From: Nanobdellati archaeon
Lineage (GTDB): Archaea > EX4484-52 > GLR71
Direction: 5' to 3'
Assembly: GCA_019429005.1 (NCBI GenBank)
Contig: JAHYJR010000001.1
Location: 195,232 to 259,231 of the forward strand
Length of the DNA: 64,000 bases
In this document: positions 4,201 to 50,350 of the stretch, in pieces
Numbering within the stretch: position 1 is the stretch's first letter
Layout of the letters: the number at the start of each line of letters is the position of its first letter
Notes under the pieces: model-generated
What the model saw: the letters and a program-made list of their open reading frames with translations, nothing else
The model's database searches: none
Told to the model about the DNA's origin: nothing
Program-made: the position numbers and the translations under genes

Positions 4201-5373
4201 TTAGAAATTTAAACAGTTAAATTCTGTTTTCAAATCTTTTATTTTTTGATTTAATACTGTGTCTGTTATGTCTTGACTGTACTTGATTATTTCCGTAATC
4301 TTTTTATTGAATTCTTTAATAATCTGGGTTATTGGATGTTCTGCATATGTTTCTGTTTTGGTTGTTTTTGGTTCTAAATATGTGGGTTTTTGTGTTTCTT
4401 GTTCTTCTTCATCTTCGTTTGTATTTTTGATTGTATATAGTTCTTCGTCATCGATTCGGTTAGTACCTATTCTATGTGCATTTTGTGTATTTGATGTTTT
4501 TGGGTCCTTATAGTGTATTTTTGGATGTGTGTCTGTTGTTGTAGTATTTATGTCTGTTATATATTCTGTATTTATATTTGTTTCTGGATTTTTAATCGCA
4601 TTATATAGGTCTTCAGCATAAGTGTTTGTAAATTTATTTTTATATTTTGTAATTGTAGTTTTAAAATCTTTTACAGATCTGATTGTGTCATTAAAACGTT
4701 TTCGTCCAAGGTTTATATTACCCTCTCCGATTATATCATATAGGCTTTTTACAACCGTTTCATATTTTTCATAAAGTGTATTTGTTATGTTGTGTTTATT
4801 GTTTGCTTTTTGCACTATTGTTGCATCACCTTCTGCAATAAGTTTATTGAATTTTTTATCTATGTATGGGAGTATGTCTGCTTGTTGAGCATGTACTAAT
4901 TCGTGTGTTTTTACAGAGTCTTTATATTTTGTATCTGTTATTGAGGGGTCTAAGTATATTGAGATATGATCTGGTTTTATTTCAGTACCATTTAGTTTAT
5001 ATTTAATCTCTGTAAGACCTACTGTATTTGATGGCAATCTTGCAATTGTGTAATCTAATTCTGTAACGTCATATTTATGTTCTTTTGGTGTGTGTTTTAA
5101 TGTTTTTAGGTATCTTTCAGCTAAGTCAAATATATTATAATCTGGTTTGTTTGTTGTTGTATATTGTTTTAATATCTCTGTATTGTATTCGGGTTGTGTG
5201 TCTGTAATATATTTAGGTTGTATGTCTGTGATGTATTTTGGTTTTGTGTCTATTAAATATGGTGCTTGTTTGTTTGATATACCTAAATCTATTGTGTGTG
5301 TATCTGTTTTGTATTGTATTTGGGGAGCTACTATATATGCTGATTTCAAATCACTTAAATACATAAATAACAC
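4201..5373 (-). CDS. Thr/Asn/Lys-rich hypothetical protein with an HExxH-x19-E (gluzincin-like) motif; possible Zn metallopeptidase
   Basis: 390 aa. THELVHAQQ...(19 aa)...AEGDAT has the spacing of thermolysin-type zincins. Internal short repeats KYITDIQP/KYITDTQP. No recognisable signal peptide. Confidence 0.4.
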   Translation of the reverse strand: MLFMYLSDLKSAYIVAPQIQYKTDTHTIDLGISNKQAPYLIDTKPKYITDIQPKYITDTQPEYNTEILKQYTTTNKPDYNIFDLAERYLKTLKHTPKEHKYDVTELDYTIARLPSNTVGLTEIKYKLNGTEIKPDHISIYLDPSITDTKYKDSVKTHELVHAQQADILPYIDKKFNKLIAEGDATIVQKANNKHNITNTLYEKYETVVKSLYDIIGEGNINLGRKRFNDTIRSVKDFKTTITKYKNKFTNTYAEDLYNAIKNPETNINTEYITDINTTTTDTHPKIHYKDPKTSNTQNAHRIGTNRIDDEELYTIKNTNEDEEEQETQKPTYLEPKTTKTETYAEHPITQIIKEFNKKITEIIKYSQDITDTVLNQKIKDLKTEFNCLNF

Positions 5374-5570
5374 CTGATTTTTGTTAAAGTTAAAATTAGT
5401 TATATATATTTCATATTTATTTAATTTTATAAATATTTGTTAAATATTTGTGCTAACTCTCACAAAAATATGCTAGTTTTTAGGGTATTTTTTAACAGAT
5501 TAGCACGCTTGCTAACGTTTTATATCTAATACTGTATTTTTATTATTTTTTTGTCTGTTTTTTTATTTGT

Positions 5571-6623
5571 GTGAGACCAAACCTTTATTTAAACTGCGTT
5601 CTAAGATTATGTATGGTATTTAAGCATCTTGTCTTTTGGATTTCAGGAATTTTTGGAACTTCAAGGCCTGTGGTATACAAGGATGAGCTTGATGCTATTG
5701 TTGAAACTGTTGTGGGTGGGTTTTCAAAGATTAATTTACGTATTTCTCAAAGTGATAATGAACTTAGTCTTTTGAGACAATCTGTGCTTCAGACACAACA
5801 AATACCAATTAGTGTGAATCTTCCTCAATTAGATAGCCTTATTATGGGTTATTCTACGATTTCAGAACGTGTTCATGTTGTTGAGTCTAATAAAGATGTT
5901 ATTAGTAATAAATTATTTATTTTAGAATCGACGCTCTCGTCTCGTATTGATTCTATTGTGTCTCAAAAACTAGAATCTATGGGCTCTAGTACCATTTCCG
6001 GTTCTTTAACAACACCTCAAATACTTGAATCTTTGCGTGCTCTAGAATCTTCTGTAAATCATATTAAATCTGAGTTAGTTACACGTTCAACTGTTGAATC
6101 TAACAACGTTACAACACCTAACAACAACGTTACAACAGCAAATAACAATGTTACAACACCTAACAACAACGTTACAACACCTAATAACAACGTTACAACA
6201 CCTAATAACAATGTTACAACACCTAATAAGAACGTTACAACAGCAAATATGTCGTTTGATGATGATTTGACTGCACAAGACGATGTTTATGGGGGTTCCG
6301 TTGACTTTGGTCAGGGTGTACAAAACGTGTCTGGGCCAAAAGCTTTTGGTTTTAAACCTACTCGTACGGTTGTCACTTCGCGTAATATGAATAAAGTACT
6401 TGTTTCATCCTTAATACCTGTTTTTAATGAGCTTTTAAATGCTGAGAAATTTTTATCTTACTCTGAATTGTCTAAACGTCTAAATAAAAAAGAAGCAACG
6501 GCAAGAGCTTATGTTAATGCTTTGAAAACTTATGGTGTTTCTATTGATGAACAGACTGTTTCTAACGGGCGTAAGCTTGTAAGGCTTGCAAAGGATGTTG
6601 TGCGTAAATATCTTATTCCTTAA
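5571..6623 (+). CDS. Hypothetical repeat protein: coiled-coil N-region, 7 x NVTTPNNN tandem repeats, basic C-terminal domain
   Basis: 350-aa ORF, true start uncertain. Seven perfect or near-perfect 24-nt repeats at about 6102-6250. C-terminal 60 aa are helical and basic, possibly DNA-binding. Confidence 0.5.
   Translation: MRPNLYLNCVLRLCMVFKHLVFWISGIFGTSRPVVYKDELDAIVETVVGGFSKINLRISQSDNELSLLRQSVLQTQQIPISVNLPQLDSLIMGYSTISERVHVVESNKDVISNKLFILESTLSSRIDSIVSQKLESMGSSTISGSLTTPQILESLRALESSVNHIKSELVTRSTVESNNVTTPNNNVTTANNNVTTPNNNVTTPNNNVTTPNNNVTTPNKNVTTANMSFDDDLTAQDDVYGGSVDFGQGVQNVSGPKAFGFKPTRTVVTSRNMNKVLVSSLIPVFNELLNAEKFLSYSELSKRLNKKEATARAYVNALKTYGVSIDEQTVSNGRKLVRLAKDVVRKYLIP
6102..6250 (+). repeat. 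24-nt tandem repeat, 7 copies (aacaacgttacaacacctaat and variants) inside the coding region
   Basis: Seen directly in the sequence. Encodes (N)NVTTP/ANN repeats. Confidence 0.9.
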
Positions 6624-6642
6624 GATGTAATTCTTTATAGTT

Positions 6643-6775
6643 CCTGCTGTTATAACAGCAGGTTGTTATTCAATAACATTGTTATAACATTGTTATAACA
6701 CTATTTAATCAATATCTATAGTCTTATTTAATTATCTATACTGTTATAACACAGAATAACATTGTTATAACAGCT
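6643..6775. repeat. Array of GTTATAACA sites (5 exact plus 1 variant), beginning with a perfect 20-bp palindrome CCTGCTGTTATAACAGCAGG
   Basis: Seen directly in the sequence. The palindrome lies 20 bp after the stop of the repeat-protein gene; further copies fall within 130 bp. Confidence 0.6.
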
Positions 6776-8485
6776 ATAGAGACTACTGTTTTATATATCT
6801 TTCAACGTGTTTTTCATTAGTTAGGGGTTTATTAGTCACTGAAGCTTCATTGAACTTTTTTTTGAATTCACTGAAACTTCACTGCACTATAAAACTAAAA
6901 TATGTTTTTTGTGTGTGGGTGTTTTTATCGTTTTATAATCTTTTTGTTTTGCGTTTCCCTCTATTTCTATTGTTTTTTTCTGTTTTTTTGATCTGTTAGA
7001 ATCTTTGGGTTTGTGTATGTGTGTGTGTGTATGTGTTTGGATTTTGTTATTTGTGTTATTTTGGGTGGTGTCTATTAGTCTATGTTCTGTTATAATTTTC
7101 TACAAAAATAACCACTTTTTGTGAGGGTTAAACTTTTGTTTATTTATGTTGTTTGAATTTAGCTTTCTTATGGTCTTTATTGGCTCTTTTAGGTCTCCGT
7201 TTGTCTCGATTGTGGCATTTATTTTGTTTAACTCTATATTATTTAGTATTTCTTTGTCTTTTGCCCCCCCCCTTTAGTATTCTCATTTGATTTCGTTTAT
7301 TTTTCATTTAGATTTCAGGATCTTTTGTTTTCATTTTTTTTTGTCTATTTTTTTCAATTACTATCAATTTTCAGAATATTTGTTTTTATCTCTATTTTTG
7401 GCTTTTTTTTGTTATAACTCTCACATTTATATCTTATTTTATCCTAATTTGGGTTTATTTCCTGTTTTTATCTAATTTAAGCCTTTATCTGTAATCTAAA
7501 TCTATCTCTATTGTTGTATTTTCGTTGTGTTTAAGTCTTTTTAGAAAAAAATAGTTACTTTTGTTCCTTAGTTATCCTTTAGTCTGACACATCTTAACGT
7601 TTATCATGTATATCTTAGCGTTTAGTACTTTGTTTTTGTATTCCTGGTATCTGTCTCTTATTGTTCTGCGTTTCTATTATATCTCTTGAATTCTGCTCTA
7701 TATAGTACGTATTTTTTAATCGTATTATATTGCTATATTTACTGTATTTACTCTATATTGCTAGTGGTTTTTATGCTCTTTTTATTGTTTATTTTTGTAT
7801 CCTTATTTAATCTTGCTAGCACACTCTTTGGGGGTATATTTGTTTAACACAGATTTTTTATTTTACTATTTTTTTATTTTGCAGACTTTATTCACACATT
7901 TCACATTTTATTTAAATAGCTTCTGAATCTCTTTCAAATTAGACCTTAACTCTCACATTTAGTGGCTCATTTTATTTGTCTTTCTTTTTGAATTTGGGGT
8001 TTTTAAGTGTTTATTGTGCTGTTTTAACGCACTTTATACTATTTAGATTTTATTGTATTCTGCTGGTTTTTTAAAATGCTTTATATCTTTATAACACACC
8101 CGTTTTTAGGTTTTTTCCTTTCAAATGTGTATATGCCTACTGTTAAGCTCTATTTCTGTTAAATTAGATCTTGTCCTATTATATTTAGATTGTCTTATAG
8201 TTTCATAGTTTTGATATATCTTTTAAATACTACATATTATAAAACTCAATTTATACCAATAGACAAGCATATCTTTATATTGCTATATCACTAAATAAAT
8301 GGTTGTTTTATTGTCTATTGTGCTTAATAATACAGCTTATTTGGAGACAATAGCCCAAAATATGCAATCTTAGGCAAGAACTTAGTTATTTTGGCCTTTT
8401 CACGGCACAAAAATTCACAATTTTTTCATATTAGGTTTCTTTTAACTCTCTCTTTTTTTATTTTTTAAAATTCAGAACTTAGGCA

Positions 8486-8893
8486 CTAGGGTGTATCAGA
8501 TTCTGTATTATAGTTATATTTCTTTGCGCTAAACGCTTTTACTGCAAGCACTATGCTTTCAAAGAAACGTTCACATCTGTTTGATAGTTTATAATAATCA
8601 CGTTCTTTTGTTTCTATTAGACCTATGCCAATAAGTTTGTTTATCATGCTGTAATATGTTGTTTTGGATATATTGTGTTCCTTACAATATATATCCCAAT
8701 TGGACCTATCAAAAACACCATTATTACCTTTTTGTCTTAGTTCTTTTAGGAATGTATAGGCATGATCTGGCAGCATTACATTTTTTGAACCTCTATATAA
8801 CAGGCTCATAAGGCTTTCAAAATCAGGGGTTTCAAGCGGTTTTACAGATATTGTCGTGTGGTATCTTCTAGGTTTTTTTGTATCCATAATCAA
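8486..8893 (-). CDS. Small putative DNA-binding protein (winged-helix-like)
   Basis: 135 aa. The segment ISKTTYYSMINKLIGIGLIETKERDYYKLS resembles an HTH recognition helix plus wing. A TTAGGCACTA array lies upstream. Confidence 0.4.
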   Translation of the reverse strand: MIMDTKKPRRYHTTISVKPLETPDFESLMSLLYRGSKNVMLPDHAYTFLKELRQKGNNGVFDRSNWDIYCKEHNISKTTYYSMINKLIGIGLIETKERDYYKLSNRCERFFESIVLAVKAFSAKKYNYNTESDTP

Positions 8894-9223
8894 TCACATT
8901 GATTTTTTGTTTTTTCTTGTTTTTATGTATTCCTATATTATGTAGAATGGATTGGTTTTATTTTTGTCTAGAAAAAATACACCATTCTGATATGTATCTG
9001 AATACACAACACTCGTACAAAACCCCCTTGATTACTAGCCTAAACATGGCAAAAATAGCGAAGCTAGTATGTTTAGTTTAGTTATATTAGAATAATGTAG
9101 TGTTACTAAGGTATATACAAATAAAAGTATAATGATATAGTAAGATATTTTATATCTTATATATTAGACTATCTAAATACATATATATCTATATTACAAT
9201 GTATATACTGTACAATGTATAAG

Positions 9224-9391
9224 TTAGGCACCAATATTGTTTTTGTTAGGCACTAAAAAGTAGGGTTGTTAGGCACTATTTTTGTTTTTTTAGGTTATAA
9301 AATTCATTTAGATAATACGTATTTTTGTATGCTATCTGTAATTTAATGTGTATTGTTTATGTATGTTTGAATAATATGTAGTTAGGCACTA
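9224..9391. promoter_or_regulatory. Cluster of four TTAGGCACTA/TTAGGCACCA sites (9224, 9246, 9269, 9382) between two wHTH genes
   Basis: Exact 10-mer repeats spaced 22-23 bp. Further copies at 8479 and 16266. An exact 10-mer is expected about 0.1 times in this window by chance. Confidence 0.45.
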
Positions 9392-9472
9392 GACAGGTTC
9401 TTATTTAGCCCTTTTAATCAAAATTTAAGAAAAAACAGACTTTTTAGGCTAAAAATAAACAAAAAAACGATA

Positions 9473-9757
9473 TCACTTAAGCTTTTTCATCACTTTTTCA
9501 AAATCTTTAGCATATTCAGAACCTTTTTCAGTCAGTTTTATGTATTTTATACGACCTACTTTTTCAAAAGAAACAATACCTTTTTTCATGAAAAGCTCAA
9601 GTATCTTTACTGTATGTGAATATGTGCAATCTGTTATTTTTGCAAGTGTTGATGCATATACACTTTCATTCTTAATACGTAATGCTAATAGTATTTGAAC
9701 GGGTTTTGCGTGTAAAAAGAGATCACATAATTCTTCATTTTCTTTAACCATATTCAA
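9473..9757 (-). CDS. Winged-helix transcriptional regulator (ArsR/TrmB-like fold)
   Basis: 94 aa. YASTLAKITDCTYSHTVKILELFMKKGIV...GRIKYIKLTEKG is a typical HTH plus wing. Confidence 0.55.
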   Translation of the reverse strand: MNMVKENEELCDLFLHAKPVQILLALRIKNESVYASTLAKITDCTYSHTVKILELFMKKGIVSFEKVGRIKYIKLTEKGSEYAKDFEKVMKKLK

Positions 9758-9867: not shown

Positions 9868-10308
9868 TTAATCAATATAATGCGAATCCAATTCCTTTGT
9901 TTTAACATTTGGTAGTTGGAATGGTGGTGGAAGATTAATCTGTGTTGCATTTATAAGTGCTGTTACAGATGCTTTTGCAAGAATGTTATTAAGTATAGGG
10001 ATTATTATTTTTTTATCGATTTTTTTATCTGTTGTCCAGGTTTTAATAATATCTTCTGTTCCTTTTTCATATATAACACGTCCTCTTATTTTAATACCTG
10101 CAATTTCGCTATCATCTAATATATATGTTGTTATATGTTCAAAAAAGACAATAGCATTATATTCATTTATTGTGCTTTTAGAATTAGTATCTTTCTTTAT
10201 AATTGGTTTGACATCAACAATATTAGCATGACTATTAATTTTTATGTTGCCTTTGATATCTCTTTTTTTCCCACAATTTATGCTATCTATGAATGTTTTT
10301 AGGATCAT
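9868..10308 (-). CDS. Hypothetical protein
   Basis: 146 aa, no recognised motifs. Start overlaps the stop of the upstream 60-aa ORF (ATGA), which suggests translational coupling. Confidence 0.4.
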   Translation of the reverse strand: MILKTFIDSINCGKKRDIKGNIKINSHANIVDVKPIIKKDTNSKSTINEYNAIVFFEHITTYILDDSEIAGIKIRGRVIYEKGTEDIIKTWTTDKKIDKKIIIPILNNILAKASVTALINATQINLPPPFQLPNVKTKELDSHYID

Positions 10309-10487
10309 TGTGTATCTACCTTTGATTTTTTATTTTTTTCAATCTCTTGAACAACCTTTGCCATATCAAAGCTGCCACGTTTTCCAAGGTATCTAATGAC
10401 TTTCTGTTTGGATGTTTTGTTTTCCCACGTGTTCTCTACAAGATACCAATACTCATGACCTTTTATAATTTTTTTTCTAATAAACAT
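10305..10487 (-). pseudogene. 60-aa ORF resembling the N-terminal motif of IS1634/IS4-family transposases (possible remnant)
   Basis: KGHEYWYLVENTWENKTSKQKVIRYLGKRG recalls the K-G-x-x-Y-x-Y-L-V-E-S-x-R-x-x-G-K-x-x-Q-x-x-x-x-Y-L-G signature at IS1634 transposase N-termini. Recognised from memory, not searched. Confidence 0.25.
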
Positions 10488-10536
10488 TGGGGGTCTATAT
10501 CTCCAATATACTTTATATTTTAGATTATTGCCTATT

Positions 10537-11640: not shown

Positions 11641-11713
11641 TAGTCCCGCCAGGATTCGAACCTGGGTCTAGAGATCCAGAGTCTCTTATGCTTGGCCTCT
11701 ACATTACGGGACT
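11641..11713 (-). tRNA. tRNA-Gln (anticodon CUG)
   Basis: Cloverleaf read by hand. Acceptor AGTCCCG/CGGGACT; anticodon stem AGAGA/TCTCT with loop CTCTGGA; T-arm CCAGG-TTCGAAT-CCTGG. CCA not encoded. Confidence 0.85.
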
Positions 11714-13126: not shown

Positions 13127-13600
13127 ATGGCTAAACATAAGAAAAAATCTGAAAGTTCAAATGGTAAATTTACATTGATTGTTATTGCTATATTCATATT
13201 ATCTACTGTTGGCTCAATTATGCTATCCTCACCAGCAAATACAGGGACTGAAATCGCGTATCCCGAATCTGCTGTTATCGACAGGCAGTTTACACAAGGC
13301 GAATTTACAGCAATAAGACAAAGTGGTCTTGTAGCAATCATTTTTTCATCAGATATTTGTATTGAAAACTGTGATCTTATGCTTATGGACCTTGAGCGTA
13401 CTGTACAGAAATATTCTCCATATGTGTTTATGTCAAGAACCTATAATGCATCTGCACCAATAACGCTTATAAGTTATTCTGCTATAGAAGAATTTGAGAC
13501 TTTTAATCAAACTGTTATTGATGAAGTAATATGTCAATCGCTATATATTGACCCTGCAGAAAAATCAAAATATTGTCTTCCTTTAGCATTTAAGCAATAG
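13127..13600 (+). CDS. Hypothetical membrane-anchored protein
   Basis: 157 aa. Basic N-terminus followed by a TM helix (FTLIVIAIFILSTVGSIML). Overlaps the 3' end of alaS by 18 nt on the opposite strand. Confidence 0.35.
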   Translation: MAKHKKKSESSNGKFTLIVIAIFILSTVGSIMLSSPANTGTEIAYPESAVIDRQFTQGEFTAIRQSGLVAIIFSSDICIENCDLMLMDLERTVQKYSPYVFMSRTYNASAPITLISYSAIEEFETFNQTVIDEVICQSLYIDPAEKSKYCLPLAFKQ

Positions 13601-16225
13601 GTTTTCAGTATCTTTAATTTCTTTTTTGAATCGTTTTATAGTATTTATCAGAACGTCTTTTTGAACTTTTATAAGGGTGCATATTGTAGATATCATTTCA
13701 TCATCAGATAAATCTGTTTTTTGATTTTCTGTTGATTCATATTCTCTTTTTGCTTTATCTATTTGGATTTTTATTGTCGCTCTAAGCTGTACTGCTTTAT
13801 CTTTATCAGTTGTTTCAATGTGACTGGCATAGCCAAGAATGTTCTTTACTTTATTTACAGATTTCCAGTAATTAAAAAGGTGTTTTGTTGCATCTAATGT
13901 TTCCATTTTGTCTTTAACACCAATCTCTTTTACATATTCTTCAAGCATATTACTTGTGTCTGTTATGTTATCTTCAACACTATTTCCCGCCACAAATTCA
14001 ATTCTTACGATACCATCTTGTATCTTTTTTGTGCCTAAAATCTTGATCTTTCCAATATCCTTTGTATTTGTGCAGTGTATACCGCCACAAGCTTCAGCAT
14101 CATATTTTCCGACTTCAACAATTCGAATGATTTTTCCAGGTGGTGCACCGCCTTGATATATTCTAAAACCATGTTTTTCTTCAGCATCCTGTCGTGACAT
14201 AAACTGTGTTTTAATTGGTATTGCCTCATAAATTATTTTATTTGCTGTATCTTCAATCTGTTTTAGCTCTTCAGCACTGATTTTTTTATAATGCGTAATA
14301 TCTAGACGTGATTTTTTAATACCTTTATTCGCACCACCCTGCCAGACGTGGTCACCAAGAACTAGTTTTGCACTTGCACCTAGAATATGTGTTGCTGAGT
14401 GCATCTGTGCTAAAGTCTTACGTCGCACAGCATTAATAACACCTACAACTTGTGCGTTTAAGCTAAAGCTTTTAATGTCCTCAACTTCATGCAAAACAAC
14501 ATCTTGTACTTTTTCAACATTTATGACTTTTTTATCATTTAATGTTCCGCTATCGTATGGCTGACCACCACCTGTCGGATAAAACAATGTTTTATCTAAA
14601 ACAAGCCACTTGTTATCTATTATATCTATGATTTTTCCACTAAATTCCATTTTTTCAGGTGATTCGTAATAAAGCATATCTGTTTTATCAATACCTTTGA
14701 CATCAACTGTAACTTTTTTAGTTCTAAGTGGTGCTTTCTGATGTTTTTCAGACAATTTTGAATAGAATTCTCCAGGGATTTTGATTTCAAGATGTTTAGT
14801 TCTTGCAACATTTTCAATAAGTTCTGGTGTAATTCCTTGAGATTCGTAAAGTGTCATAAGTGTATTTTTATCAAATTTATTTTTTTTGTCAATCATCGTA
14901 TTGATGATTCTTTTTGCGTTTGTCAATGTTTTTGTATACTTGCTTTTTTCACTTTCAACAATCTTTTTCATGTTTTCAATATTATCTTCAAGCTCAGGGA
15001 ACATAGGTTTTAAGTATTTAGCATGACCTTGTGCAATATCCATAAGTTCAAAATCCCATGCATTCCTGTTTATGAAATCAAGAGATCTTCGCAATAATAC
15101 CCGTAAATTATAACCACCACCAACATTAGATGGTATGCCACCATCCGTTGTTGCAAAAAGAAGTGTTCTTGCATGGTCTGCTACCGCATAAAGGTTTTGT
15201 AATGGCTCAAAATCATCTTTCATTTCTTTGACAGTCACACCAACATGTTTTGCAGCATTTGCCATTGCTTTGTTTATGTCTTGAACCTCGTCTAGGTTAA
15301 GGGATCCTGCAATTTTTGAATATTTAGCAAATTTTTCTTCATTGACTTTAATCCCTGTCGATTTTTTCATTTTGTTTGTAACGGGACCAAAAAGAGAATC
15401 ATATGATGCTGAAGTTCCATTTGAGAACCATACTAATCTTTCAAGCCCCCATCCGACATCTACAACCTTTGTATCAAGTTGTTCATAACCAGCACCATTA
15501 TTATTTTTTTGGAACTGCATAAATACCGAATTGACAAGTTCAAGGCCTCTTGAGAATGTTTCAATACAAGGTCCGAATGCAGAAAAATCAGGCATTGCCC
15601 AGATATCTTCAATGTATACAAGTTCTTTTTCAGGTATACCCATTGCCTTTGTTAAGAAATTAAAATTAAGGTCTATGCATCTGTCTTTAAAATATCCAGT
15701 TTCAGGATATCCAAAAGCATGTTGTCCTGCCATAACAAAAGAAGTTAAATGTCGTCCTGTTACACCAACATTGGGTATGTCTGGGAATCTTAAGCATACT
15801 TGCGGTACAACTAGTGGATTTGCAGGGTATTCAAAGCTCATCTTTCCATTATCAAGTCTTTGAAAATCTTGTATTGATGCAATTGTAAAATATAAGTCAG
15901 GTCTCCATCTGTCTACAACAGGATACCGTGGTATTGATGTATGTCCATTTTTTTTGAAGAATTTCTCAAAAAGTTTCCATGTTTCAATATAATCCCATTT
16001 TTGTTTTGTTATGGTGTCTCCAATAAAATCATAATCTTGACATGGTGTATCTGCACAATATTTTCTTTCAGTATCAAGTGTCCAAAATACTTTACTACAT
16101 TTTGAGCATGTTTTTCGCACAAAACCTCTCTCTTTGAATAGTTCAATCTGGTAATGTTTTTTCCAGTCTTTTGAAAATTCATTTTTAAGGTCTTTTTTGG
16201 TAAGCATAAGATAACACCAATTCAA
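13583..16225 (-). CDS. alaS: Alanine--tRNA ligase (archaeal type)
   Basis: 880 aa. Archaeal AlaRS N-terminus with CSKCSK zinc motif, HSATH editing-domain motif, C-terminal DHHA1-like region. Confidence 0.93.
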   Translation of the reverse strand: MNWCYLMLTKKDLKNEFSKDWKKHYQIELFKERGFVRKTCSKCSKVFWTLDTERKYCADTPCQDYDFIGDTITKQKWDYIETWKLFEKFFKKNGHTSIPRYPVVDRWRPDLYFTIASIQDFQRLDNGKMSFEYPANPLVVPQVCLRFPDIPNVGVTGRHLTSFVMAGQHAFGYPETGYFKDRCIDLNFNFLTKAMGIPEKELVYIEDIWAMPDFSAFGPCIETFSRGLELVNSVFMQFQKNNNGAGYEQLDTKVVDVGWGLERLVWFSNGTSASYDSLFGPVTNKMKKSTGIKVNEEKFAKYSKIAGSLNLDEVQDINKAMANAAKHVGVTVKEMKDDFEPLQNLYAVADHARTLLFATTDGGIPSNVGGGYNLRVLLRRSLDFINRNAWDFELMDIAQGHAKYLKPMFPELEDNIENMKKIVESEKSKYTKTLTNAKRIINTMIDKKNKFDKNTLMTLYESQGITPELIENVARTKHLEIKIPGEFYSKLSEKHQKAPLRTKKVTVDVKGIDKTDMLYYESPEKMEFSGKIIDIIDNKWLVLDKTLFYPTGGGQPYDSGTLNDKKVINVEKVQDVVLHEVEDIKSFSLNAQVVGVINAVRRKTLAQMHSATHILGASAKLVLGDHVWQGGANKGIKKSRLDITHYKKISAEELKQIEDTANKIIYEAIPIKTQFMSRQDAEEKHGFRIYQGGAPPGKIIRIVEVGKYDAEACGGIHCTNTKDIGKIKILGTKKIQDGIVRIEFVAGNSVEDNITDTSNMLEEYVKEIGVKDKMETLDATKHLFNYWKSVNKVKNILGYASHIETTDKDKAVQLRATIKIQIDKAKREYESTENQKTDLSDDEMISTICTLIKVQKDVLINTIKRFKKEIKDTENLLLKC

Positions 16226-16298
16226 TATTTAGATTTCGGTATTAAGTTATTTAACTTTATCTAAGTTAGGCACTAATAAATTTTTAAGGTTTATCAAA

Positions 16299-48932: not shown

Positions 48933-49123
48933 TGTGTGATGAAAAAAGCAATAAAACTTGGAAATGAGTTTGTTGATGCTTATCTTTATGCTAAGGTTAA
49001 GGTGTGATTATATCTAATTTTTGAAGATGTTTTTATTCCGTTTCTCTGTTTTTGTTATACTTGATTGTTTCATACACCTATTTTTTTAAAATCTTAAGTG
49101 ACTATTTTACGAAAAATATATAT

Positions 49124-49462
<339 letters not shown>

Positions 49463-49501
49463 ATCGTTATAAAAAAATGTAAAATATCTTTAGTTGATTG
49501 T

Positions 49502-50350
49502 ATGAAACAAAACATTAATAATCATCTCAGTATAATGACAATTTTATTAAGAAAATGTAATTTATATTGTGATCATTGTTCTTCTAATTCTTCGTTTAAA
49601 CGTGAAGGTTTTGTTAATACTGATGATATTTTAAACATATTGGAAGCTTTTGCGCCATATGCCAAGAAAAAACAGCATCTTGTTAGTGGAGGGGAACCAA
49701 CATTACATCCAGATTTACATTATGTATTATCTGCTTCAAACGATTTGGGTTATAAGACATCAGTTGTGACTAATGCGTCTTGGATTGATCTTGATGATAT
49801 GGGTAAGACTGAAAGATTTTTTTATGACACTTTTCCTGAAGATTTAAAGATAACATCATCTTTTGATCTGGAGCATTTCAAGGAAGATCCAATGCTTCTC
49901 CAAAGATTATCTGTTTTACATGATTTAACACATAATCGCAATAAAATTACTATTGATGGTGCATATAATGGCGTTAACGGTATAAAGAAAATACAGTCTT
50001 ATTTAGACGAAACTACATTTGATTATATGTTGATTCCTATGCAGAGTATGGGGCGGGCAACAAATTTAGTAAATCAGAATATTTTAGATAATAATAAATT
50101 ATCTTGTCCTAAAGGTGATAAGAAAGGGTTTGTTATCACTGATGATGGTGTATATTATTGCTTAAGGACTGCTCTTACTTCAAATCCTTGTTTTAAACTT
50201 TCAGATAGTTATGATGTGGAAGAAATATTACATGCTTTGGATTGTTTCAATTCATCTTCAATAAACAGTTCAATCGTATCATTATATGATAATTTATCGC
50301 CTCAAGAGATTATTGATAATTATCATTATCCTTGTGATTTATGCGAATAG
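49502..50350 (+). CDS. Radical SAM protein with C-terminal Cys-rich region (possible SPASM/twitch auxiliary cluster)
   Basis: 282 aa from MKQNINNH.... CNLYCDHC equals CxxxCxxC at residues 19-26; GGEP motif; C-terminal cysteines C..(CPKGD)...YYC......C and terminal CDLC. Confidence 0.72.
   Translation: MKQNINNHLSIMTILLRKCNLYCDHCSSNSSFKREGFVNTDDILNILEAFAPYAKKKQHLVSGGEPTLHPDLHYVLSASNDLGYKTSVVTNASWIDLDDMGKTERFFYDTFPEDLKITSSFDLEHFKEDPMLLQRLSVLHDLTHNRNKITIDGAYNGVNGIKKIQSYLDETTFDYMLIPMQSMGRATNLVNQNILDNNKLSCPKGDKKGFVITDDGVYYCLRTALTSNPCFKLSDSYDVEEILHALDCFNSSSINSSIVSLYDNLSPQEIIDNYHYPCDLCE

Follow-up and report, generated by a model that had tools for sequence, protein, structure and literature searches.

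The DNA analysed here is a 64-kb stretch of the genome of a DPANN archaeon (the window, meaning the whole stretch). It carries a short, non-palindromic motif, TTAGGCACTA (gene-strand form (G)TAGTGCCTAAC), most copies of which cluster beside two genes for winged helix-turn-helix (wHTH) proteins: a 94-residue protein denoted wHTH94 and an AF_0843-like protein. We found that the motif is conserved in close relatives of this locus and that it co-occurs with genes of a family of small proteins, represented in the window by the 60-residue protein p60. On balance, the sequence evidence favors p60, encoded nearby, as the protein for which TTAGGCACTA or (G)TAGTGCCTAAC serves as a recognition or operator site.

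The site family and its conservation

The distribution of the motif was analysed in the 64-kb window and in homologous loci. Exact copies of TTAGGCACTA start at 8479, 9246, 9269, 9382 and 16266, and the variant TTAGGCACCA starts at 9224, all on the plus strand of the window. In gene-strand form, the sites and the elements next to them are the following:

Site s1, 9381..9391, minus strand: TAGTGCCTAAC, 82 nt downstream of the stop codon of the wHTH94 gene.
Site s2, 9268..9278, minus strand: TAGTGCCTAAC, the first of three phased sites.
Site s3, 9245..9255, minus strand: TAGTGCCTAAC, 23 bp from s2.
Site s4, 9223..9233, minus strand: the variant TGGTGCCTAAC, 22 bp from s3.
AT-rich spacer, 9090..9222, no strand: separates the phased sites from the conserved blocks that precede the AF_0843-like gene.
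Site s5, 8478..8488, minus strand: TAGTGCCTAAG, overlapping the TAG stop codon of the AF_0843-like gene.
Site s6, 16265..16275, minus strand: TAGTGCCTAAC, in the ~90-bp intergenic region upstream of alaS.
alaS, 13583..16207, minus strand: archaeal alanine-tRNA ligase, candidate target gene of s6.

The exact 10-mer TTAGGCACTA was observed five times against 0.11 expected from the base composition of the window, and the 11-mer GTTAGGCACTA four times against 0.017 expected; these k-mer statistics rule out a chance origin. The remaining 10-mers and 11-mers with an equal excess fall within coding sequence or a coding tandem repeat. The copies of TTAGGCACTA are all non-coding, except that the one at 8479-8488 overlaps the TAG stop codon of gene 8486-8893. 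The number of one-mismatch matches is by itself not significant (8 against 3.5 expected, a count reached by 3 of 100 shuffles), and two of these matches, at 14029 and 59181 on the minus strand, look like chance. The signal of the motif comes from the exact copies and from the way they share one orientation, cluster (spacings of 22, 23 and 113 bp) and lie in non-coding DNA. The copy at 16266, which adjoins an AT-rich, TATA-like sequence, lies upstream of both candidate starts of alaS: 41 bp from the TTG at which the open reading frame (ORF) begins, and 59 bp from the ATG at 16207, the likelier start, where GGTG provides a Shine-Dalgarno-like sequence. s6 and s4 agree at 16 of 17 bases (TAAGTTAGGCACYAATA; repeat families D3 and D5). 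The flanks of the copies could not be aligned beyond ~12 nt, and the repeat families D3, D5 and D6 reach only a few AT-rich bases further. This lack of flank similarity ruled out a longer dispersed repeat or a miniature inverted-repeat transposable element, the case that the sequence-only reading of the window had named as contrary to its claim. That reading had described five exact copies and one variant where about 0.1 would be expected in 64 kb, a phasing of 22-23 bp, an overlap with the stop codon of gene 8486-8893 and a copy about 40 bp upstream of alaS. All of these observations hold, and the sequence data also favor its view of the copies as a non-random set of sites that a protein binds in a regulatory region.

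Two relatives, L005 and L004, encode AF_0843-like proteins that are 82% and 78% identical to that of the window, respectively. L005 has three copies of the motif at spacings of 23 and 22 bp, followed by an AT-rich stretch, and L004 has four copies at matching positions. In a three-way alignment of the window with these loci (A4), the GTGCCTAA cores are invariant and the spacers are divergent. The s2 core is found unchanged at the matching position in both relatives; the counterpart of s3 is intact in L005 and degenerate in L004, and the TGG form of s4 is the common form in L005. Sites likewise follow soon after the wHTH94 stop codon in L004 and L267, and a site 8-30 nt past the AF_0843-like stop codon is present in both L004 and L005; in the window, a degenerate GAGAGAGTTA element lies ~30 nt past s5. 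The spacer at 9090..9222 contains the seventh least stable 100-bp stretch of the window, and the layout is the same in L005. As judged from its invariant cores, the motif is a conserved cis-regulatory site, presumably bound by a protein. Among relatives that share the gene cluster, it is restricted to clade A, to which the window belongs: in clades B, C and D (61-68% identity; 20 loci, 205 kb), GTGCCTAA occurs twice against 3.9 expected.

Association of the sites with p60

The proposed binder of the motif is encoded 0.9 kb from the site array, in the same gene cluster:

p60, 10305..10487, minus strand: 60 residues; its N-terminal ~37 residues (MFIRKKIIKGHEYWYLVENTWENKTSKQKVIRYLGKRG) constitute a widespread module.

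p60 and the motif occur together in L004 and are both absent from the 20 loci of clades B-D. L005, a short contig, has the motif and does not reach the p60 position. A metagenome scan that used only a DNA pattern (GTGCCTAA-N12-18-TRGTGCCTAA) retrieved at least 120 loci; the metagenomic proportions given here describe a sample of such loci. Among the retrieved loci listed, p60 matched 8 by tblastn, and a hidden Markov model of the p60 domain matched 10, with E values from 3e-9 to 1e-23. A tblastn search of the listed loci with wHTH94, the AF_0843-like protein, p146 (encoded next to wHTH94) and alanyl-tRNA synthetase (AlaRS) yielded no match. The 10 contigs that encode the p60 domain are unrelated to the window and range in GC content from 29 to 57%; 9 of them have at least one site within ~190 bp of the domain's start codon. 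The extended site consensus, GTAGTGCCTAAC, comprises 12 bp.

A site at the gene's own promoter was found for the p60-like gene in L166, L168, L232, L243, L246, L269, L270 and L271. In all of these loci except L271, the nearest site has its core beginning 11-18 nt ahead of the ATG, after a TATA box, and the distance from TATA box to ATG is 28-32 nt. With this distance, the gene is expected to be leaderless and the site to lie between the TATA box and the transcription start. Homologous loci have the nearest site 2-10 nt ahead of the regulator's own ATG, and further sites upstream. In a reverse test, five loci were fetched via p60 homologues, the motif not being used, and all five contain sites. 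The array is directly upstream of the p60-like gene in three of them, with the last site between TATA box and ATG in two of the three: L270 has four sites and L271 three, which are the sole occurrences of GTGCCTA in 20 kb of each locus, and in L269 one site is 6 nt ahead of the ATG and another three are intergenic. The sites of L267 lie 69 and 175 nt past the wHTH94 stop codon, and those of L266 at two promoters, at the start of the gene for the CCA-adding enzyme and upstream of a 150-residue gene. Combined, L266, L267 and L269 have 10 copies of GTGCCTAA against 1.23 expected (Poisson 7e-7). The motif and p60-family genes were found together in both search directions. The two-site pattern also gave 120 matches in viral contigs, none of them with a p60-like gene, a result that was uninformative.

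The AlphaFold2 model of p60 (predicted local distance difference test score (pLDDT) of 92) consists of strands 2-8, 11-22 and 25-35 and a helix at 42-59. In this model, the N-terminal ~37 residues form a three-stranded antiparallel sheet that packs on the C-terminal helix, which is the topology of the AP2/integrase arm-binding superfamily. The assignment to this fold class is suggestive only; the top Foldseek match, a P4-like integrase arm-binding domain bound to DNA, is not significant (E = 0.78). The N-terminal module was found in 820 cluster representatives at E values up to 1e-3, and in nearly all of the 150 best matches it is located at or near the N-terminus of proteins of 42 to more than 500 residues. 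Carriers of named source are mostly from Woesearchaeota, Aenigmarchaeota, Nanohaloarchaea and Nanoarchaeota. The module has no match in the Pfam-A and NCBIfam libraries used, and two proteins with a doubled domain carry the precomputed label PF20586. Its C-terminal partners include Doc/Fic, ADP-ribosyltransferase, an HExxH-type (HELAH) segment, HNH nuclease and glycyl-tRNA synthetase (GlyRS), as would be expected for a DNA-targeting module. In the GlyRS fusions (L243 8275-9909, L177 1546-3237 and L171 2409-4172), the module is an N-terminal extension of ~65 residues; each fusion gene has two to three GTAGTGCCTAAC sites at its own promoter and tRNA genes directly upstream. In two Woesearchaeota-like contigs, a p60-like gene lies within ~1.5 kb of orc1/cdc6 (L168 1454-2683 and L269 7334-8491), and in both an ORF of ~230 residues adjoins the p60-like gene.

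That p60 binds these sites, how many molecules do so and whether they repress or activate we infer from sequence. One p60 molecule would occupy each non-palindromic site, and a spacing of 21-25 bp, about two helical turns, would place the p60 molecules on roughly one face of the DNA and so permit cooperative binding. In most module-bearing DPANN genomes, the array is found just upstream of the p60-like gene, and its last site falls between TATA box and start codon. Archaeal repressors that keep polymerase from being recruited to a leaderless gene typically bind there, so this arrangement would result in autorepression. In the window, p60 may act in trans on two targets. One would be the AF_0843-like gene, which is bracketed by four sites on one side and one on the other, the phased sites being ~150 nt upstream of a BRE/TATA-like block (BRE, transcription factor B recognition element). 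This block, ~150 nt downstream of s4, is a conserved sequence, C(T/C)AAAC..AAC(A/T)TA(T/C)(A/T)(A/G), that resembles a BRE/TATA promoter element. The other target would be the promoter region of alaS, contacted via s6. s5, at the AF_0843-like stop codon and ~30 nt ahead of a GTGAGAGTTA-like element, would provide another good site. The part of the sequence-only reading that places a nearby gene under control of the sites may hold.

Several observations weigh against p60 as the binder. Its own promoter in the window lacks the textbook autoregulatory layout: the one match there, ATAGGCAATA at 10526-10535 on the minus strand, is inverted, agrees at 8 of 10 positions, lies 39 nt upstream of the p60 start and overlaps the stop codon of the neighboring p75 gene; it may be a degenerate autoregulatory site. 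The distance from the phased sites to the next start codon, at least 330 nt, is long for an archaeal operator, and the counterpart of s6 upstream of alaS is not conserved in L267. It is also unusual for a transcription factor family that a 12-bp site stays constant across homologues only 40-60% identical. Finally, the motif occurs in frame inside ORFs of L168 and L186, where it encodes VVPN or VVPK: GTAGTGCCTAAC at L168 1217-1252 reads VVPN, and a 24-bp tandem unit at the contig end of L186 reads VVPKTRGG.

Other candidate binders and functions

The co-occurrence of sites and p60-like genes would equally fit a different factor that regulates p60-like genes, p60 then being a target alongside alaS, glyS, cca and a small RNA. 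This explanation we judge unlikely. It would account for the window's p60 promoter having no good site and for the 30 of 40 listed metagenome loci with at least two full sites that have no p60-like gene on the contig, 11 of which have the pair of sites ahead of the promoter of a conserved non-coding RNA. Not finding a p60 gene means little, however, because many of the contigs without p60 are only 1-3 kb long. Moreover, the fold of the p60 module is plausible for DNA binding, its fusions to nucleases and toxins resemble those of a targeting domain, and sites at the promoters of three independent module-bearing GlyRS genes fit autoregulation.

The sequence-only reading had assigned the sites to one of the two adjacent wHTH proteins as an autoregulatory operator. 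These proteins and the conserved elements near them are:

wHTH94, 9473..9757, minus strand: 94-residue wHTH protein, conserved in clades that lack the motif.
AF_0843-like gene, 8486..8887, minus strand: 133/135-residue wHTH protein, Pfam PF27297 (AF_0843); inverted relative to its neighbors in clade B.
Second motif AAAT-GTGAGAGTTA, 7416-7424 and 7948-7956 (exact) and 8436-8444 (degenerate), minus strand: a site family separate from TTAGGCACTA.
Conserved non-coding blocks, 8929..9075, minus strand: upstream of the AF_0843-like gene, CTATTTTTG..AAYCAAGGGG..TGTRTATTCA.
Palindrome ATTCT-N10-AGGAAT, 8929-8948, minus strand: within these conserved blocks.

The sites are indeed located between the two wHTH genes, and both products are credible wHTH DNA binders. 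Among solved structures, the closest profile relatives of wHTH94 are AF_1382 (E = 6e-8) and AspA, a segregation protein of pNOB8, the latter a weak match (E = 1.6e-3); the model of the AF_0843-like protein (pLDDT 75) has a wHTH fold with no significant match in the Protein Data Bank. However, the assignment was not borne out, and we now give it very little credence. The predicted recognition helices, SKTTYYxMINKL in the 135-residue AF_0843-family protein and DCTYSHTVKIL in the 94-residue protein, are invariant across clades A-D, including the clades that have WWWTGGGAA repeats instead of the motif; both proteins are poor candidates because an invariant reading head should not switch from TGGGAA to GTGCCTAA. 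Neither protein has a homologue on any of the listed motif-retrieved contigs, and L269, L270 and L271 have sites with no called wHTH-like gene beside them. The phased TAGTGCCTAAC sites also lie at least 330 bp upstream of the start codon of the AF_0843-like gene.

Two other conserved motifs, GTGAGAGTTA and ATTCC-N11-GGAAT, can account for both wHTH proteins, being widespread enough to serve as their sites. Copies of AAAT-GTGAGAGTTA, which follow an A-rich TATA-like stretch, are spread in a single orientation along the long non-coding region next to the AF_0843-like gene in all four clades (A-D) having such a region (L002, L004, L005, L007, L008, L010, L011, L013-L016 and L019-L021), and the motif is conserved far more widely than TTAGGCACTA. 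It is a better candidate site for the invariant wHTH proteins than TTAGGCACTA, or may be a repeated promoter element; a further copy lies at 5455-5463 of the window. The palindrome ATTC(C/T)-N10-11-(A)GGAAT overlaps a TATA-like region ~40 nt upstream of the AF_0843-like start codon and is shared by L004, L005, L007, L010, L013, L014 and L008; at 8929-8948 it looks like the operator of a dimeric regulator. Two more TATTCC half-sites are found further upstream. The WWWTGGGAA repeats of clades B and C (L007, L010, L013, L014, L002, L020 and L021) occupy positions comparable to those of the window's TAGTGCCTAA, with a few scattered copies also in clade D. They are sometimes phased at 26-31 bp, four in a row, and others form TGGGAA-N4-TTCCCA pairs; TGGGAA is absent from the window's non-coding region.

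The array could also be read as part of a replication origin or centromere-like element, the sites being iterons. In its favor, a 130-bp AT-rich stretch of low stability borders three direct repeats spaced at 22-23 bp, a 1.86-kb non-coding region is close by, wHTH94 has the weak profile match to AspA mentioned above, and p60-like genes lie near orc1/cdc6 in L168 and L269. We nevertheless consider this reading improbable. No Orc1/Cdc6, Rep or ParA was found among the scanned ORFs of the window or beside the non-coding region of relatives; the sister genome L266 retains p60, p146 and wHTH94 and has no sites, AF_0843-like gene or non-coding region at this position; and elsewhere the motif stands between the TATA box and ATG of ordinary genes. 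All copies point in the same direction, unlike origin recognition boxes around an unwinding element, the GC skew tracks gene orientation with genes converging on the region, and the AT-rich stretch ranks only seventh in the window. A chromosomal origin (oriC) was rejected because no Cdc6 domain was found in the scanned ORFs nearby, the six copies have one orientation and the region is missing from L266. As regards an iteron-type plasmid origin, phased repeats and an AT-rich stretch are present, and a Rep-like protein was not recognised in the scanned ORFs. Arm-type recombination sites at the edge of a mobile island between wHTH94 and gatE, with p60 as an accessory arm-binding factor, would explain why the content of this segment differs among the window, L267 and L266, why a tyrosine recombinase lies beside the sites in L267 and why clade B has the AF_0843-like gene in reverse orientation; an integrase arm-binding domain is also the best structural match of p60. 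Against this stand the lack of significance of that match, the lack of attachment-site-like repeats flanking the island, the TATA-site-ATG layout that indicates transcription control in many genomes, and the fact that the sole integrase-related match in the scanned ORFs between gatE and tRNA-Gln (Phage_int_SAM_4 in p222, E = 0.019) is far below threshold. The chance that this explanation is correct appears slim indeed. An integrated element at tRNA-Gln (11641-11713) was likewise ruled out: the scanned ORFs gave no significant integrase hit, and the p75-p146-wHTH94-AF_0843 cluster keeps its synteny and is conserved from lineage to lineage.

Relation to known systems and the surrounding locus

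Regulators with operator arrays are, as a kind of system, already well known. Archaeal repressors that are autoregulated through an operator between TATA box and transcription start include MDR1, LrpA and Phr. The homologous loci resemble these in that the nearest site is right downstream of the TATA box and before the regulator's own ATG. They differ in that the proposed binder is a ~37-residue module with a predicted three-stranded sheet and not an HTH or wHTH protein, that the sites are non-palindromic direct repeats and that, in the window, they are not at the regulator's own promoter. The modelled three antiparallel strands and C-terminal helix of p60 are shared with the arm-type binding domains of the lambda, Tn916 and HPI/P4-like integrases and with AP2/ERF domains, and the asymmetric, directly repeated sites of ~10 bp are similar to arm-type sites of tyrosine recombinases. 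An HNH fusion of the p60 module (P0264) recalls bacterial AP2-HNH proteins. Direct repeats ~22 bp apart beside an AT-rich stretch are also found in plasmid iterons and archaeal origin recognition boxes; unlike these, the sites of the window have no adjacent Rep or Orc1/Cdc6 gene among the scanned ORFs, no sequence similarity to origin recognition boxes and no opposite orientations, are missing from the sister genome and, elsewhere, occur at ordinary promoters.

The alanyl-tRNA synthetase of E. coli is reported, in work by Putney and Schimmel from 1981, to bind the promoter of its own alaS gene and thereby to autoregulate transcription. This autorepression would be the closest functional precedent. 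As in E. coli, promoters of synthetase genes (alaS in the window and three module-bearing GlyRS genes) have a specific predicted protein-binding site; unlike in E. coli, DNA binding would reside in an added N-terminal module (GlyRS) or in a separate 60-residue protein (alaS), and the organisms are archaea. The links to alaS, glyS, the gene for the CCA-adding enzyme and a small RNA suggest, without proving, a coordinated control of the translation machinery. More tentatively, and with more doubt than confidence, the p60 module and GTAGTGCCTAAC might be conceived as a DPANN-wide regulatory circuit dedicated to the translation apparatus. In one mode, a free 60-residue factor would control alaS, the gene for the CCA-adding enzyme and the conserved small RNA with the 5' end AUCACCUCUUUUU; in the other, the domain fused to GlyRS would let the enzyme bind its own promoter. 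If this were true, transcription in these symbionts with small genomes would respond directly, by feedback, to tRNA charging or translation capacity.

The small RNA candidate was seen in 11 metagenome contigs (L158, L184, L187, L202, L208, L217, L218, L236, L244, L247 and L263). These contigs share a strong BRE/TATA element, CGAAAnnTTTAAATA, that follows GTCATTTTTTAAGAGTAACA and has a pair of GTAGTGCCTAA sites at 75-120 nt on its upstream side. A conserved RNA candidate of ~70 nt begins ~22 nt past the TATA box; its invariant 5' end resembles the 3' end of 16S rRNA and is followed by a hairpin with compensatory changes in 7 of 15 pairs. The candidate has no Rfam match and is absent from the window.

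A literature search on AF_0843, PF27297, PF20586, the motif and GlyRS extensions in DPANN archaea found nothing relevant, and the location of the A. fulgidus origin was dropped as an uninformative lead for the AF_0843 family. The pair of p60 module and site is widespread in DPANN archaea and apparently undescribed; the small sheet-type module, the near-constant 12-bp site across DPANN lineages and the fusion to a synthetase with sites at its own promoter all appear to be new. Gene regulation in DPANN archaea is almost unexplored, and since these organisms are uncultured or hard to culture, their regulators are inferred from sequence. p60 and its 12-bp site provide a testable pair, and a DNA target would clarify many unannotated proteins that carry the module. 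The result also corrects the assumption that a cluster of sites belongs to the nearest winged-helix genes.

The window further encodes GatD, GatE, an archaeal AlaRS, the ribosomal proteins L10, L1 and L11, and FtsZ. Between 8486 and 10764, all genes are on the minus strand, in the order p75 (a small membrane protein), p60, p146, wHTH94, a 579-bp spacer that contains four sites, and the AF_0843-like wHTH gene, followed by 1.86 kb of non-coding DNA. In many Aenigmarchaeota-like genomes, p146, wHTH94, the AF_0843-like gene, the long non-coding region and an ATP-cone/Mrr-like gene are syntenic; the p146-wHTH94-AF_0843 cluster is therefore no strain-specific island. Clade B (L002, L016, L019, L020 and L021) has the AF_0843-like gene in the opposite orientation with respect to wHTH94 and the non-coding region. 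The position between wHTH94 and gatE is a variable hotspot: the window has sites, the AF_0843-like gene, the non-coding region, p350 and p390 there; in L267, the segment is replaced by sites, a tyrosine recombinase and a 297-residue gene; and L266, which retains p60, p146 and wHTH94, lacks the segment as a whole.

The non-coding region (6624-8485) has no credible ORF over 1.86 kb, an unusual length for so compact a window. Its plus strand is strongly T-rich (AT skew -0.46), and the genes on either side converge on it. The region at the same position in relatives measures ~0.5 to 1.7 kb, and the contigs of several relatives end nearby. An Rfam scan of the window detected four tRNAs only and nothing above chance in 6500-9600. 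The palindrome TGTTATAACA is present in five copies within 125 bp (6648-6772) against 0.15 expected, directly after the stop codon of a 350-residue ORF (5571-6623) with an HTH-looking C-terminus; its first copy forms the loop of a terminator-like hairpin at 6643-6662. The same ORF contains seven 21-nt tandem repeats encoding NNVTTP(N) at 6081-6269, and the adjacent 390-residue ORF (4201-5373) is also of low complexity and rich in threonine. The least stable DNA of the window, ~330 bp of pure A/T at 49130-49460, consists of (TTATTATTTTTA)n / (TTA)n simple repeats inside a mechanically called ORF (49052-50350); because the radical SAM domain of this ORF begins downstream, its true start is probably past the repeat.

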